A stretch of 64,000 bases of DNA from positions 80,412 to 144,411 of the forward strand of contig DEWF01000010.1 in assembly GCA_002363545.1 (NCBI GenBank), in the 5' to 3' direction. Both the position numbers and the translations under genes were made by a program. The notes under the pieces were generated by a model that was not told where the DNA came from, did not search any database, and saw only the letters and a list, made by a program, of their open reading frames with translations. Source of the stretch: Christensenella sp. UBA3217. Lineage in GTDB: Bacteria; Bacillota; Clostridia; Christensenellales; CAG-1252. Of this stretch, positions 3 to 16,311 are shown in pieces. Position 1 is the stretch's first letter, and every line of letters starts with the position of its first letter.

Positions 3-1475
3 GCGCTTACCACAGCGCTTTTGTCCGTTTATTTCGGATGGGGCACTTCCGCCGTGTATTTGAAAGTGCGTAGTGGCGATACGGCGCTTTCCGCTCTTAC
101 GAAAGACCAACCCATGATCATTAAAAGCGATATTACTCTTGCCAAGGGTGTGGATAGTTATTCTGCCAAGATAGGGGGTGAAAACCACGTGATCGCACTG
201 TCCGCCCCCTTTGCCGAACGCTTTTCGGGGGAAATCAGGGACGTGACTTTCTTGCTCACGAAGGACTTTAAGGGGGATGCCGTCATATTGGAAAACAGCG
301 GCGCCTTATTAAACGTTCGCGTGATCGCGGAGGGAGAATGGGAAAAGGGCGGTGAGTACGTTTCCGCTTTGGTGGCGGCAAACAAAGGGAAGATCACCTC
401 CTGCTCGGTGCAGGCGGATCTCACGATAGGGGGCGATCAAAGGGGTAACTGTTACCTCGGCATGATCGCCGGAAAGAACGAAGGGGTCATTCAAAACTGC
501 CTTGCAAAAGGGAGTTGCACAGCGGAAAACGTGGACCTTGCCGGCATCGTGGGGGAAAACCTTTCGGCAGGCAGTGTGCACGATTGCACGGTGGAAATGA
601 ACCTCACCCAACGTACTACGCTACAGGGATGGAACCCTAACGTGGCGGGCATTTGCGATACCAATCACGGTGTGATCGAAAGATGCGTCTTTTCGGGGAG
701 CATCAGCGCGGTCGTGGACGTTTTGGAACTGCAAACGGGCGAGGATGTTTGCTCGGCTTATGCGGCGGGCATCGTTTGTACCAACGTGGGTACCCTTTTT
801 AAGTGCACCAACCAAGGGAGCGTGACAGCCACAGCACATAACGGCGGTGCCTTTGCGGGCGGGATAGTCACCTTTAACACGGTGACCAACGATTATGCTT
901 TGCTGGGAATGATCGAAGGTTGTTCGGGCCTTGGCGAGGTGACCGCTTCTTCTGATTCGTATAACAGCACGGCAGGCGGGGTAGCCGCCGTGAACAACAA
1001 GGGTGCTACCATTCAGTTCTCCCGTCAAACGCAACGGGTAGAGGCGCTTACCCAAGGGGATTATTACGATTATACGGGCGGCATCGCAGGGCAAAGCGGC
1101 GGGCTTCTCAAGGGGTGCTTCTTCGTGGGGACCCTTCCCGAGCAGGATCAAGACAGCATCGTGGGTGCCATCGTCGGGTCGTATCATTTGTATTACGGCG
1201 GCAAATACAACGGGCAGGATACTTGGTACACGAACATTTGGGATAACAACGCCTTCGTTTCGGACAGTGCGCGCACGAGCGGTGCCGTCGTCAGTGACAC
1301 CTCCGATGTGTTCGGGTTGCGTGGGTATGACGGATTGCGCGCATCCATCACCTATTCGCGATACTATTTTGAGAATACGGCAGGTTATGAAAAGTACGTG
1401 TCGGAGTTGCTTGACGCAAACGTGAAGCCGGTCACACTCGAAGAGTTAAAAGAAATGGAGATCTATTATGAGTAA
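3..1475 (+). CDS. Cell-surface repeat protein with GLUG-like G-rich repeats; 5' end cut by window edge
   Basis: The frame is open to base 3 with no upstream stop. Repeat cores recur (AGIVGEN, VAGICDTN, AAGIVCTN, AGGIVTFN, AGGVAAVNN, TGGIAGQSGG), each followed by G-x-I/V-x-x-C turns as in GLUG/adhesin beta-helix repeats. Confidence 0.55.
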   Translation, partial: ALTTALLSVYFGWGTSAVYLKVRSGDTALSALTKDQPMIIKSDITLAKGVDSYSAKIGGENHVIALSAPFAERFSGEIRDVTFLLTKDFKGDAVILENSGALLNVRVIAEGEWEKGGEYVSALVAANKGKITSCSVQADLTIGGDQRGNCYLGMIAGKNEGVIQNCLAKGSCTAENVDLAGIVGENLSAGSVHDCTVEMNLTQRTTLQGWNPNVAGICDTNHGVIERCVFSGSISAVVDVLELQTGEDVCSAYAAGIVCTNVGTLFKCTNQGSVTATAHNGGAFAGGIVTFNTVTNDYALLGMIEGCSGLGEVTASSDSYNSTAGGVAAVNNKGATIQFSRQTQRVEALTQGDYYDYTGGIAGQSGGLLKGCFFVGTLPEQDQDSIVGAIVGSYHLYYGGKYNGQDTWYTNIWDNNAFVSDSARTSGAVVSDTSDVFGLRGYDGLRASITYSRYYFENTAGYEKYVSELLDANVKPVTLEELKEMEIYYE

Positions 1476-1680
1476 GGCGCTTATGAAATGGATATGGATG
1501 CTTGTTGCGGGGGGAGTTTTATTGCTCTTTTTCGGCGTGATGCTACTCATCTCTTACCCAACGGCGGCATCCTTCGGCGTGCTTCCCGTGTGGGCGTTTT
1601 ATCTTGCGGGCGGCATCGTTTCTCTGTTCTTTTTTGCCATGGCGGCATTTTTCTTGGTAGTAAGCAAAAAAGGCAGTTGA
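1468..1680 (+). CDS. Small two-TM membrane protein (hypothetical)
   Basis: 70 aa, almost entirely hydrophobic in two segments. Its ATG overlaps the upstream stop (ATGAGTAA), which suggests translational coupling. Confidence 0.5.
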   Translation: MSKALMKWIWMLVAGGVLLLFFGVMLLISYPTAASFGVLPVWAFYLAGGIVSLFFFAMAAFFLVVSKKGS

Positions 1681-4767: not shown

Positions 4768-5469
4768 TTATATTTTTTTACTGATGACTTCTCCCGTGAC
4801 GGGGTCAAGCAACAGCGCCCAATAATCCGAAGAGGATTTAATGAAAGAAACGTAGTAATAATAGGGCTGGTCGGCGTCCGCAAGGGCGTTCACAAGTTTG
4901 ATATAGATCTCACGGTTAAGGTTGCCGGTATCACTTTCTGCCCGGATCACTTCGGCAAGTTCACGTTCCGCCACGGAAAGGATCTCACGCCAACTGAGCG
5001 CACCTTCCGCTTTGTTGGTAAGGGAGATCTCGCTTTCCATGATCCCTTCCGCGATCACTTTTACAGACACTATCTTACCGATGGCTTTCGTATCCGCTAC
5101 TTCGGCGGAGAAGGAGGCGCCGATCACGTCCTTTGCCAAGTTGCCGCTCCTTTCTCCCGTTTCCCCTTGCAAAAGATAGGTATAGGTATTATTAAAAAGA
5201 GAAGAAGAGAGCGGGGTGACCGTCAGCGTGGCAAAAGGAGTCATTTCCCCAACCTCGCCGTCGATCACAATGATCTTTTCCGCCTCACCTGTCACAAAAC
5301 TTACGTTAAAGTTTTCGTTTGCGCCCACGTAAACGGCGTTATGGTAGGTGCTAACTCTCTTTTCCAAGCCCGTTTTGCCGCTCTTTTTGTCGGAACCGTT
5401 GCAAGCGGTAAAGAGGCTGATGCCCATAATAAGCAAAAACACGATGGTGACGATAAATGATTTTTTCAT
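4768..5469 (-). CDS. Lipoprotein, PepSY-like C-terminus (hypothetical)
   Basis: The start is taken at MKKSFIVTIVFLLIMGISLFTAC (lipobox LFTAC). The longer ORF start at 5499 lacks signal-peptide logic. The C-terminus (YWALLLDPVTGEVISKKI) resembles PepSY ends. Confidence 0.6.
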   Translation of the reverse strand: MKKSFIVTIVFLLIMGISLFTACNGSDKKSGKTGLEKRVSTYHNAVYVGANENFNVSFVTGEAEKIIVIDGEVGEMTPFATLTVTPLSSSLFNNTYTYLLQGETGERSGNLAKDVIGASFSAEVADTKAIGKIVSVKVIAEGIMESEISLTNKAEGALSWREILSVAERELAEVIRAESDTGNLNREIYIKLVNALADADQPYYYYVSFIKSSSDYWALLLDPVTGEVISKKI

Positions 5470-5540
5470 ACTGTTCCCCCGAAAAAAAGTACTATACATT
5501 ATGTTGCCGTAAGGGAATTTATGCCGCAGGGATATTTGAC

Positions 5541-14299: not shown

Positions 14300-14899
14300 T
14301 CAATCGCCCTTTTTTATCCAATCATCCAAAAACGCCATCTGCTCTTCGGTATGGAACCAATGCTCGCCGCCTTTCATTACCGTCAAGTCCGCATGGATCT
14401 TGTTGGCAAAGTCCGAAATCGTTTGGGGATCGGTCAAAGAATCTTTTTCTCCGTACAGGATTTTTGTGGGTACCGTCCATTTGATCGGGTGCGATCGCAC
14501 GTACGATAGGTAGTCCCAAGAAAGCGTGTCGCCAAACGGGGTGGGAATCTCTTTCTCCTTACGCAACCTTTCTTCCGAAACGCCTGCCGCCCGCATCATG
14601 TCTTCAATCAATTTTACCATATCGCAAATCGGAGAAATAAAGTATGCCTTTTCTATCTTTTTTCCGAAAAATGCGTGCATTGCAAGAAAAGCGCCAATGC
14701 TGTTGGCAATCAAGATCACGCGTTTATCGTTTAGCGTATTTTCATTCCAAAAATCGTTGAATTCCTTTGTTGCCTCCCACGGCGTTTGGGCTTTATAATC
14801 CATTCCCATCACGGTGTGATCGGGAAACAGCGGGGCATAATGTTCCGCCTCGCTTGCGCTACCGCCTTTTCCGTGAATGTAAAGAATGATGGGTTTCAT
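14300..14899 (-). CDS. Small alpha/beta-fold hydrolase (esterase-like)
   Basis: Start at MKPIILYIHGKGGS with a GAGGT RBS. Nucleophile-elbow-like ANSIGAF and a C-terminal GGEHWFH. The upstream ORF extension runs into the tandem repeat and is rejected. Confidence 0.65.
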   Translation of the reverse strand: MKPIILYIHGKGGSASEAEHYAPLFPDHTVMGMDYKAQTPWEATKEFNDFWNENTLNDKRVILIANSIGAFLAMHAFFGKKIEKAYFISPICDMVKLIEDMMRAAGVSEERLRKEKEIPTPFGDTLSWDYLSYVRSHPIKWTVPTKILYGEKDSLTDPQTISDFANKIHADLTVMKGGEHWFHTEEQMAFLDDWIKKGD

Positions 14900-14980
14900 T
14901 TTTTGCAATACCTCTTTTTTCATTATACACGAAAAAAAGTTTTTTTCATAGAACAAATAAAACCTCATTATTCCGCATGG

Positions 14981-15350
14981 TTCAAGCCCCACGCATACAT
15001 AATAAAAGCACTCGCTTTCACGAGTGCTCTTGGTGCCGAAGGTGGGACGTCTATCTCTTGCCGGAGTGGCAAATGCTCCCCCGCATTTGGCGCCGCCTAA
15101 CTTGCTTTGCACAGTTTCTCAGTCGGCGCTGCCCACTCGTTCAAGCCCCACGCAAGTAAAAGAAAAAGCACTCGCTTTCACGAGTGCTCTTGGTGCCGAA
15201 GGTGGGACGTCTATCTCTTGCCGGGGTGGCAAATGCTCCCCCGCATTTGGCGCCGCCTAAACAGCAAAGCACAGTTTCTCAGTCGGCGCTGCCCACCCGT
15301 TCAAGCCCCACGCAAATAAAAGAAAAAGCACTCGCTTTCACGAGTGCTCT
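14981..15350. repeat. Tandem 159/160-bp units, each carrying the tRNA-Leu 3' terminal 18 nt and its terminator hairpin
   Basis: Units begin at 14981, 15140 and 15300 (TTCAAGCCCCACGCA...). Each contains AGCACTCGCTTTCACGAGTGCT followed by TGGTGCCGAAGGTGGGAC, identical to the start of the real tRNA at 15351. Confidence 0.9.
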
Positions 15351-15436
15351 TGGTGCCGAAGGTGGGACTTGAACCCACACGTTGTCGCCAACAATGGATT
15401 TTGAGTCCATCGCGTCTGCCATTCCACCACTTCGGC
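15351..15436 (-). tRNA. tRNA-Leu(CAA), CCA encoded
   Basis: The minus strand reads GCCGAAGTGGTGGAATGGCAGACGCGATGGACTCAAAATCCATTGTTGGCGACAACGTGTGGGTTCAAGTCCCACCTTCGGCACCA. Acceptor stem GCCGAAG/CTTCGGC, anticodon stem ATGGA/TCCAT, loop CTCAAAA, a long variable arm and T-loop TTCAAGT. Confidence 0.93.
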
Positions 15437-15446
15437 TTGCTTATTT

Positions 15447-15475
15447 ACTATACCATAACCAAAAGAGCATTGCAA
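15447..15475 (-). promoter_or_regulatory. Promoter of tRNA-Leu (TTGCAA-17-TATAGT)
   Basis: On the minus strand, TTGCAA (15475-15470), a 17-nt spacer, TATAGT (15452-15447), about 10 nt upstream of the tRNA 5' end. Confidence 0.6.
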
Positions 15476-15616
15476 GCGATTTTTTCAGAATACATCACAA
15501 CTCTTTTTGATTCCACATAAAATGCAGTGTGCAAAAGAAAAAACGCAAGACACCGTCCGAGAAGGACGCGGCGCTTGCAGTGAATATACCCCTTGATAAG
15601 AACCGGCGCCGGAGAG

Positions 15617-15660
15617 AGCATCGCGCAAAGTGGCTTTTGGCAAGTAGCGCGATGCTTTTT
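15617..15660 (+). terminator. Orphan terminator-like hairpin upstream of the ppa promoter
   Basis: 10-bp stem AGCATCGCGC/GCGCGATGCT followed by TTTTT. No annotated + strand gene ends here. Confidence 0.5.
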
Positions 15661-15716
15661 GCTGTAAAAACAGTGAAAAAAGGGGCAAAGGGAAGGCGCT
15701 CCGTTACATTTTTTTC

Positions 15717-15745
15717 TTGAAAAATAATTTATTAAGTGTTAGAAT
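15717..15745 (+). promoter_or_regulatory. ppa promoter (TTGAAA-17-TAGAAT)
   Basis: TTGAAA at 15717-15722, a 17-nt spacer, TAGAAT at 15740-15745. Confidence 0.55.
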
Positions 15746-15777
15746 AATAAATAGATTATTTTTACGGAGGTTTTCCC

Positions 15778-16311
15778 ATGAATTTGTGGAAAGACATGAA
15801 TCCCGCCCGTATCGCTCCGCAGGACTTTATTGCGGTGATCGAGATCAGCAAAGGCAGCAAGAATAAGTACGAATTGGATAAGGAATCCGGCGCTCTCATT
15901 CTGGATAGAGTGCTTTATACTTCCACCCACTATCCCGCCAATTACGGTTTTATTCCTTTGACTTATGCGGATGATAAGGACCCGCTGGACGTTTTGGTGC
16001 TTTGCAGTGAACAAATTGCTCCGCTTGCCATCGTGGAGTGTTATCCCATTGGCGTTATGGCCATGATAGACGGCGGCGCGTTTGACTATAAGATCATAGC
16101 GGTGCCTTTCCGTGACCCCACCTATAACAGTTATCAGGACGTGGGAGAACTGCCCCCGCATATCGTGCAGGAAATAGCACACTTCTTTAACGTGTATAAG
16201 CAACTGGAACACAAGGAAACCACCGTGATGGAGATCTTCGGAAAAGGGCGCGCTTTGGATATCATCAAAGAAGCGATAGATTTGTATCGGGAGAAATTCG
16301 GACAGCTGTGA
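15778..16311 (+). CDS. ppa: Family I inorganic pyrophosphatase
   Basis: VIEISKGSKNKYELDK, YPANYGFIP and DKDPLDVLVL motifs. 177 aa. GGAGG RBS. Confidence 0.93.
   Translation: MNLWKDMNPARIAPQDFIAVIEISKGSKNKYELDKESGALILDRVLYTSTHYPANYGFIPLTYADDKDPLDVLVLCSEQIAPLAIVECYPIGVMAMIDGGAFDYKIIAVPFRDPTYNSYQDVGELPPHIVQEIAHFFNVYKQLEHKETTVMEIFGKGRALDIIKEAIDLYREKFGQL

Follow-up and report, generated by a model that had tools for sequence, protein, structure and literature searches.

A tRNA gene followed by repeated copies of its own 3' end raises the question of what the repeated units are: scars left by integrating elements, elements that are themselves mobile, or products of the tRNA transcription unit. Such an arrangement is found in Christensenella sp. 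UBA3217, in a 64,000-nucleotide stretch of contig DEWF01000010.1 (positions 80,412 to 144,411 of the forward strand; assembly GCA_002363545.1) that was analyzed as a whole and is called the window below. Here, a tRNA-Leu(CAA) gene is followed by tandem units of ca. 160 bp. An original prediction, made from the sequence alone, considered them possible remnants of tyrosine-integrase elements. We find that the structured module in each unit is confined to the 3' flank of the tRNA and has the architecture of the RtT RNA and tRNA-linked repeats (TLRs) of Escherichia coli, without homology to them. On balance, we lean toward the view that the array is TLR-type, a new, non-homologous sequence family of a known kind, in Clostridia.

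Organization of the array

The basic arrangement was described correctly in the original prediction, which had each unit regenerating the last 18 nucleotides of the tRNA and its terminator. ARAGORN identifies the tRNA, and Tandem Repeats Finder (TRF) reports a tandem array at 14980-15368 (period 160 bp, 2.4 copies, 93% matches). The last 18 nucleotides of the tRNA, GTCCCACCTTCGGCACCA (the 18-mer), occur in exactly three copies, all on the minus strand; 0.04 copies are expected and none of 100 shuffles reaches three. The 18-mer comprises the last 2 nt of the T-loop, the 3' strand of the T-stem, the 3' strand of the acceptor stem, the discriminator, and CCA, and in both units it is identical to the tRNA 3' end at 18 of 18 positions. 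After every 18-mer, the terminator hairpin AAGAGCACTCG-TGAA-AGCGAGTGCTTTT is present, also in three copies. Within each 160-bp period, the intrinsic terminator of the tRNA is copied first; a short spacer and a module of ca. 123 nt, with a body of ca. 95 nt, come after it. The segment between 18-mer repeats is 142 nt long and contains no conserved open reading frame (ORF). The array occupies 14980-15350 of the minus strand, directly 3' of the tRNA-Leu gene and in the same orientation. Its features, in the order of transcription, are as follows:

15447-15475, minus strand: σ70-like promoter of the tRNA-Leu transcription unit (TTGCAA, 17-nt spacer, TG, TATAGT)
15351-15436, minus strand: tRNA-Leu(CAA) gene with encoded CCA (ARAGORN; Rfam tRNA, 57.2 bits)
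15351-15368, minus strand: 18-mer copy 1, within the tRNA
15314-15351, minus strand: intrinsic terminator 1 (12-bp stem, loop TGAA, U-tract)
15191-15313, minus strand: structured module of unit A (5' motif GTGGGGCTTGAAC, helices P0, P1, and P2, 18-mer copy 2)
15191-15208, minus strand: 18-mer copy 2, end of unit A
15154-15191, minus strand: intrinsic terminator 2, hairpin identical to that of terminator 1
15031-15153, minus strand: structured module of unit B, with another allele of the P1 tip, ending in 18-mer copy 3
15031-15048, minus strand: 18-mer copy 3, end of unit B
14995-15031, minus strand: intrinsic terminator 3, with a deviating spacer, ATTATGTATGCG, which is the spacer found in the unit-less relative L011
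14980-14994, minus strand: terminal partial copy, consisting of only the 5' motif GCGTGGGGCTTGAAC after terminator 3, followed by unique sequence

The helices of unit A are P0 (GGGTGG/CCACCC), P1 (GCGCCG.../...CGGCGC), and P2 (CAAATGC/GCATTTG). The hairpin CAAATGC-GGGGGA-GCATTTG is, as had been predicted, common to both units, which differ from each other at nine positions, the GCTTTGC/GCAAAGC segment among them. Upstream of the array, the minus strand has no promoter-like site other than that at 15447-15475. No promoter-like sites were found within the units, and the idea that they have promoters of their own was therefore dropped.

The body of the units is a conserved fold

To describe the fold, 12 distinct units with the body type of the window (W-type), from the window and its relatives, were aligned (effective number of sequences 1.09). 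The consensus contains an outer stem, GUGGGRC(UUG) with (CRA)...GUCCCAC, and three inner helices: P0, GGGUGG/CCACCC; P1, GCGCCG.AC.../...GU.CGGCGC, which has a variable tip; and P2, CAAAUGC/GCAUUUG, with loops of 3-11 nt. The paired state is observed in 97.3% of alignment cells. Six of the 31 pairs have changed on both sides, compared with 1.8 ± 0.9 in column shuffles, none of which (0/500) reach six; when the partners were slid by 1-3 columns as a control, 0-1 compensatory pairs remained. The support from these six pairs falls in the inner helices. In P1, GCGCCG/CGGCGC is changed to GCGGCG/CGCCGC (L008; L numbers designate related loci) or to GUGCCG/CGGCAC (L090), in P2, CAAAUGC/GCAUUUG becomes CAAACGC/GCGUUUG or CGAAUGC/GCAUUCG, and in P0, GGGUGG/CCACCC becomes GGGCGG/CCGCCC (L062). 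A change of the same kind can be seen within the window itself, where P0 has GGG/CCC in unit A and GAG/CUC in unit B, by a G>A (15297 in A, 15137 in B) and a C>T substitution (alignment pair 18-97, GC to AU).

The strand on which folding takes place can be recognized from the mismatches that are tolerated. The tRNA-sense strand has 14 G.U cells versus five A.C cells, and the opposite strand would reverse these counts; the tRNA-sense strand is therefore the folding strand. A second, independent body family (Candidatus Scatosoma type) has 13 compensatory pairs out of 45. We conclude that the secondary structure is conserved and is kept by compensatory changes on the tRNA-sense strand.

A covariance model, R1, was built from the W family. 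In the 64-kb window, it matched only units A (141.1 bits) and B (141.9 bits); the units of relatives scored 111-140 bits and those of other lineages weakly, 14-33 bits. The T arm and 3' end of the tRNA itself scored 18.5 bits, like a unit with its body deleted. A protein-coding (tpr-like) module was considered and rejected: its sense frames are full of stops, and homologous modules, 119-129 nt long, differ in length by non-multiples of three.

The tip of P1 requires a separate description (15225-15297 and 15065-15137 in the window; 19-141 in L008). L008 is 98.3% identical to the window over 1.2 kb, yet its P1 tip is completely different; a large share of its 20 mismatches lies in the ca. 40-nt P1 segment, where the stem stays paired through a C/G swap. 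Other relatives form differing small distal hairpins at this place. We conclude that the P1 tip is hypervariable among near-identical strains. The original prediction saw a flipped mini-palindrome here. Only the two 7-mers, GCTTTGC and GCAAAGC, are reverse complements of each other, and three substitutions next to them are at odds with an inversion. A local inversion was also rejected by comparison with relatives: the tip of unit A is like that of L012, and the tip of unit B is like those of L090 and L062, resemblances that identify them as alleles of the hypervariable tip.

The 5' motif is complementary to the copied tRNA end

Each module begins with the motif GTGGG(G/A)CTTGAAC, which is the reverse complement of the tRNA's GTTCAAGTCCCAC (3/500 and 0/500 shuffles score as high). 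Its GTGGGRC part is complementary to the T-stem 3' strand and the end of the T-loop, and is predicted to form the outer stem with GTCCCAC of the 18-mer, leaving an unpaired tail, CUUCGGCACCA, which ends in CCA. In many units, a stretch of 7-10 nt at the 3' end of the same unit can pair with the motif; GGGUGGG would be an alternative partner of the 18-mer. In the W alignment, 97.6% of outer-stem cells are paired; since the 18-mer is invariant, the changes seen here are one-sided only (A-U/G.U).

The best support for the outer stem is provided by L043, where a second tRNA-Leu gene (anticodon loop CTAAGGA) is followed by a repeat array of its own (5150-5507, minus strand). The units of this array consist of a terminator, a (GC)AGGACTTGAAC start, a body, and the 18-mer of that tRNA, GTCCTGTCGACCGCACCA. 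Their motif has AGGAC in place of GGGAC, matching the GTCCT of that 18-mer. The body is significantly similar to bodies found behind tRNA-Leu(CAA) in L030, L041, and L042 (1-2/1000 shuffles). [quoted passage not shown]

Copy number and distribution of the units

Homologous contigs were retrieved by the requirement that they encode exactly both proteins flanking the array, a pyrophosphatase and a hydrolase; contigs with a related locus are labeled as Christensenella or as Christensenellaceae metagenome-assembled genomes (MAGs). The independently assembled L002 shows 100% identity to the window, units A and B included. L001/L005 and L003 (99.4-99.6% identical) have two units each, and L006 has at least one before the contig ends. 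In L011, the flanks are 95.3% identical to those of the window and one clean 319-nt gap corresponds to the two units; the hydrolase gene comes immediately after the tRNA, the terminator, and the motif, with zero units. One unit is present in L091 and L094, and two in the window and L090. In L012, L033, L062, and L064, a 189-nt unit of another type (V) precedes a W-type unit, and L108 has three units, V+W+W. The V and W types have a common framework (motif, P0, and CCCCGGCG). The terminal copies in L012, L033, L062, and L108 are decayed. The direct repeat is 18 nt long in L091, 28 nt in L094, and ca. 69 nt in the window. The comparison of strains called for by the original prediction thus reveals a unit number of zero to three among relatives, with L011 unoccupied.

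A wider scan, with one genome per species, for 18-mers preceded by a base other than that of the T-loop yielded 67 loci. About 31 of these contain a tRNA-Leu(CAA) with one or two extra 18-mers 66-270 nt downstream; they belong to Christensenellales, Ca. Scatosoma, Oscillospiraceae, other Clostridia, Syntrophomonadales, and Victivallales. The bodies vary from lineage to lineage (W, V, Scatosoma-type, and a 'AGCGUUAAGAAAAC-hairpin' type were distinguished), but the order of the parts is a recurrent one: a terminator is followed by a motif of the kind (G)GTGGGAC(TTGA), by at least one hairpin, by the 18-mer, and by a further terminator. The remaining 36 loci, with a single match, are mostly coincidences inside protein-coding genes; several of them share one conserved coding context. 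A metagenome scan with a gapped W/V pattern gave mostly chance matches in coding DNA, L105 and L108 being the only informative loci.

The genes flanking the array in the window are those of an inorganic pyrophosphatase (ppa; 15778-16311, plus strand) and a small alpha/beta hydrolase (14899-14300, minus strand), separated by an intergenic distance of 878 bp. Other neighbors in the window and the homologous contigs have housekeeping roles (FAD oxidoreductases, holA, peptidase M28, DAC, an HTH protein, and germination protease). In L108 (2900-3800), the tRNA and its V+W+W array lie upstream of and are co-directional with the pyrophosphatase gene, whereas the pair in the window is divergent; the tRNA-array segment was therefore inverted or relocated between the relatives.

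Several further arrangements were noted at other loci. In L036, a Gut-1 RNA (RF01706, 76.5 bits; 1427-1503, plus strand) is found directly downstream of a tRNA-Leu-linked unit, within a run of 'GTGAAAT + short hairpin' repeats, with a flavin mononucleotide (FMN) riboswitch at 2076-2198. Runs of a word plus a hairpin also follow the arrays in L012 and L064 (GAAATC...) and in L091 (GTTATATT...). In the Acidobacteriota locus L072 (1266-1445), the last ca. 24 nt of tRNA-Glu(CTC) are repeated 88 nt downstream, and in Kineobactrum (L066, 4624-4787), tRNA-Leu(GAG) is accompanied by a 78-nt unit that ends in the 18-mer and the same trailer.

Alternatives considered: mobile elements, remnants, and assembly artefacts

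The alternative that survives best is that the units are miniature, non-autonomous elements similar to cis-mobilizable elements (CIMEs), each unit (terminator, motif, and body) being inserted, stacked, and excised in trans by a tyrosine integrase of the T-loop class with the 18-mer as its att core. We consider this unlikely, and grant no more to its corollary that the fold, be it of DNA or of RNA, is conserved for the sake of mobility and not for a host function. The T-loop is, with the anticodon loop and the 3' end, one of the sublocations recognized by tRNA-targeting integrases, whose direct repeats are usually 15-221 bp long (10.1101/2020.11.02.365908), and the repeat in the window begins 2 nt before the T-loop end. 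The absence of exactly two units from the otherwise ca. 95% identical L011, the stacking of different body types behind one tRNA (V+W in L012, L064, and L108), the occurrence of one body family behind two tRNAs, with the appropriate tRNA end each time, and the lineage-dependent length of the direct repeat all agree with insertion. The same 18-mer also bounds larger integrase-less inserts (3.4 kb in L092, 0.6 kb in L105), and tRNA-Leu(CAA) is a real phage att site (L027).

Against this stands the failure to find either an enzyme or a partner element. No integrase was called within ca. 6 kb on either side of the array in the window and homologous contigs, and Pfam analysis of 20 window ORFs scanned between 4 and 43 kb revealed no integrase or recombinase. 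The W unit has no match in IMG/VR, in INPHARED phages, or in PLSDB plasmids (blastn for phages and plasmids), so that the att-bearing element implied by the original prediction was not encountered in these collections. No viral contig contains the left end of the body, and in IMG/VR the 18-mer occurs only twice outside tRNAs, in neither case together with a W body. The phage found at tRNA-Leu(CAA) leaves a partial tRNA of the anticodon-loop type, not the structure seen in the window. A circle of 160 bp is a poor substrate for recombination. Stacking of V and W could be an old tandem duplication, given their common framework, and unequal crossing-over explains changes of copy number equally well.

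The idea of an integrase scar has support in part. The array resembles att scars, tandem accretion, and CIMEs in its tRNA 3'-end repeats starting in the T-loop, in its presence/absence polymorphism, and in its stacked inserts, and to this extent the original prediction is borne out. It differs from them in that the insert is only ca. 95 nt long, has no foreign cargo, no integrase among the genes called or scanned around it, and no related attP in the phage and plasmid collections, and has a covarying fold; the W unit is unlike a scar, in which no fold would be preserved by compensatory changes. The small non-autonomous element that was also proposed is compatible with the L011 polymorphism and with stacking, but no partner for it was found. 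Site-specific recombination may nonetheless have been the origin of the first unit or a means of its spread.

Elements of the inserts and of the phage site were recorded as follows. In a Thermoclostridium MAG (L092, 3484-6959), a 3.4-kb insert lies between tRNA-Leu(CAA) and a further exact copy of the 18-mer and has genes for a PadR regulator, a HAAS-domain protein, and two short-chain dehydrogenases (SDR); since it is integrase-less, we regard it as a CIME-like island. In L105 (1061-1684), a 92-aa ORF (MELKYYLEQ..., no Pfam match) lies between the tRNA-Leu and a W unit whose 18-mer is 594 nt from the tRNA; a similar ORF of ca. 97 aa (MELKYYLEQ...) is present downstream of the array in L012 (705 to ca. 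412, minus strand). L027 (14350-14700; IMGVR_UViG_3300035103_000041) is a prophage end, where AT-rich phage DNA is joined to a partial tRNA-Leu, extending from the anticodon loop to CCA and followed by a terminator, the host's 123-nt mini-unit (GTGGGACTTGAAC ... hairpin ... 18-mer), and a second terminator. The IMG/VR entries L015-L026 and L028 are large viral contigs with at least 20 tRNA genes each; their tRNA-Leu(CAA) has the same 3' 24 nt, with no repeat units after it.

Less probable still is that the units are inert, i.e., decayed scars of integration and deletion or decayed partial tRNA duplicates with no present function. Remnants of this kind do occur: L043, L077, and L089 carry a truncated tRNA-Leu copy of 74-94 nt, which extends from the anticodon stem onward and whose T arm is decayed, the units of L029 and L044 keep variable-arm and T-arm-like sequence, and the decayed terminal copies mentioned above point the same way. 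However, folds are preserved by compensatory changes in two independent body families, and even between tandem copies of one genome, which is not expected of neutral remnants, and the architecture recurs across several phyla. Comparison with the first 68 nt of the tRNA is not significant (170/500 shuffles match the score for the W body and 323/500 for V), and a degenerate tRNA copy was rejected on this basis. ARAGORN calls one tRNA only at the locus and no pseudo-tRNA; tRNA-like remainders were met in other lineages (L029, L043, L077, and L089). The truncated copies themselves lie between tRNA-Leu(CAA) and the next tRNA (L043, 5530-5653; L077, 4798-4901; L089, 1310-1413); their decayed T arm, GTGTGAGACCAAAGTCCCAC, gives them the look of an att remnant of the anticodon-loop type.

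Finally, the array is not an assembly artefact: repeat expansion or collapse is suggested by the many short-read contigs that break at the array and by the likely chimera L004, joined inside the tRNA, but it is extremely improbable given the independent assembly of A+B in L002, the two-unit arrays of L001/L005 and L003, the homologous arrays of related species, and the nine differing positions, because of which units A and B are each anchored by unique sequence. In L004 (1-340), a metagenome contig, the pyrophosphatase gene and the 5' part of tRNA-Leu of an AT-rich organism appear to be joined to the 3' part and the hydrolase flank of the window organism; the acceptor strand of the resulting tRNA is not complementary.

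A model for the array as tRNA-linked repeats

The array as a TLR-type family would function as follows. The modules would be co-transcribed with tRNA-Leu by read-through of the terminators. The copied tRNA 3' end, together with the trailer and terminator, would provide each module with the same signals for 3'-end formation and trimming as those of the tRNA. In the resulting RNA, the outer stem would enclose the three-helix body of P0, P1, and P2 and leave the tail CUUCGGCACCA free. Copy number would shift by unequal homologous recombination between the direct repeats of ca. 69 bp (18-mer, terminator, spacer, and motif), a process that would account for the zero, one, two, or three units of the relatives.

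Several observations weigh against the interpretation of the array as TLRs. There is no double compensatory change in the outer stem of the W family. Outer-stem length is often within the range of shuffles, only nine of 44 units being at ≤5/200 shuffles; this weak unit-by-unit significance arises since chance matches between G-rich bodies and the C-rich tail are frequent. The motif is an exact inverted copy of the tRNA T-loop/T-stem (13 nt) and is present even in the unit-less L011, so it could reflect history at the DNA level instead of RNA pairing. The W alignment is one of only 12 related sequences, with the low effective number given above, and a folded single-stranded DNA structure would keep compensatory changes equally well. 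Read-through may be rare, since the terminators are strong, with 12-bp stems and U-tracts. Homology to the RtT family of Rfam (RF00391) is absent. If the TLR interpretation is wrong, the locus is a decayed att region without wider interest.

The recurrence of the layout can also be taken further. TLR-type modules may form a phylum-spanning class, in which unrelated bodies acquire the T-arm and 3' end of the tRNA they follow, with the copied tRNA end possibly inverted at the 5' end of the module and direct at its 3' end. This is speculative, and we think it rather doubtful. Members would be found in Enterobacteria and Clostridia (Christensenellales and Oscillospiraceae) and, more tentatively, in Syntrophomonadales, Victivallales, and Kineobactrum. 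If true, this would mean either that the tRNA end guides propagation in a way not yet described or that these RNAs have an unnoticed general role, in forming the 3' ends of stable-RNA operons or in controlling their quality.

Comparison with known systems

TLRs were first described in 1978, behind tyrT of E. coli (PMC8144298), and in the library searched, literature using the term concerns E. coli or enteric bacteria only. They are the nearest known counterpart of the array and were not considered in the original prediction. [quoted passage not shown] The rrn-linked copies (rrA/B/F) have a terminator on either side, arise by read-through, and undergo processing; for those linked to tRNAs, neither a function nor an origin is known (PMC8144298). 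As a positive control, the tyrT-tyrV-rttR region of E. coli K-12 (L097) was subjected to the same analysis. It contains a 178-bp x3.1 array and four RtT (RF00391) matches of 133-137 bits. In the RF00391 consensus, the 5' segment GGGGAAGGA pairs with UCCUUCCCC of the tRNA-Tyr-derived 3' end, and CACCACCA is unpaired.

The units of the window differ from RtT in that similarity of sequence and to the covariance model is absent: there is no RF00391 match in 14500-16000 even at E≤10 (gathering score 45 bits), and the body is an unrelated three-helix fold. At the gathering score, no Rfam family matches any unit of 18 related loci; a known RNA family was rejected as an explanation, Rfam returning only tRNA and, in L036, the unrelated Gut-1 and FMN riboswitch. 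The hosts are Christensenellaceae and other Clostridia, not Enterobacteria. Every unit in the window has a full intrinsic terminator, which the tyrT repeats lack, and there is no tpr-like ORF as in those repeats.

The array can also be compared with 3'ETS-leuZ of E. coli, a small RNA released from the 3' trailer of a tRNA-Leu unit (PMC8144298). The predicted RNA of the present locus would likewise come from the 3' trailer of a tRNA-Leu transcription unit. Unlike the window units, 3'ETS-leuZ is unrepeated, does not include a copied tRNA 3' end, and precedes the terminator, and nothing at the window locus indicates a sponge or base-pairing activity.

The likeness to E. coli TLRs is one of construction. 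In both systems, the repeats follow a stable-RNA gene immediately and in the same orientation, in one to five tandem units of ca. 150-180 nt (160 bp x 2.4 in the window), and the copied end starts in the last 2-3 nt of the T-loop. As in RF00391, the tRNA-derived 3' segment has a complement near the 5' end of the unit, with which it is predicted to form an outer stem around a GC-rich structured body, followed by a tail ending in CCA. Homologous bodies take the 3' end of whichever gene is upstream, here seen once, in L043. The shared rules are thus an 18-19-nt copy of the tRNA 3' end, a complementary 5' motif, an interchangeable structured body, flanking terminators, and variable copy number. 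That an unrelated family in gut Clostridia and other phyla is built to the same rules suggests that the design itself is selected or mechanistically generated, and is not an accident of one lineage. The independent comparative material, with covarying helices, a hypervariable tip, alleles with and without units, and a body family linked to two different tRNAs, allows TLRs to be tested as processed RNAs, as mobile mini-elements, or as both.

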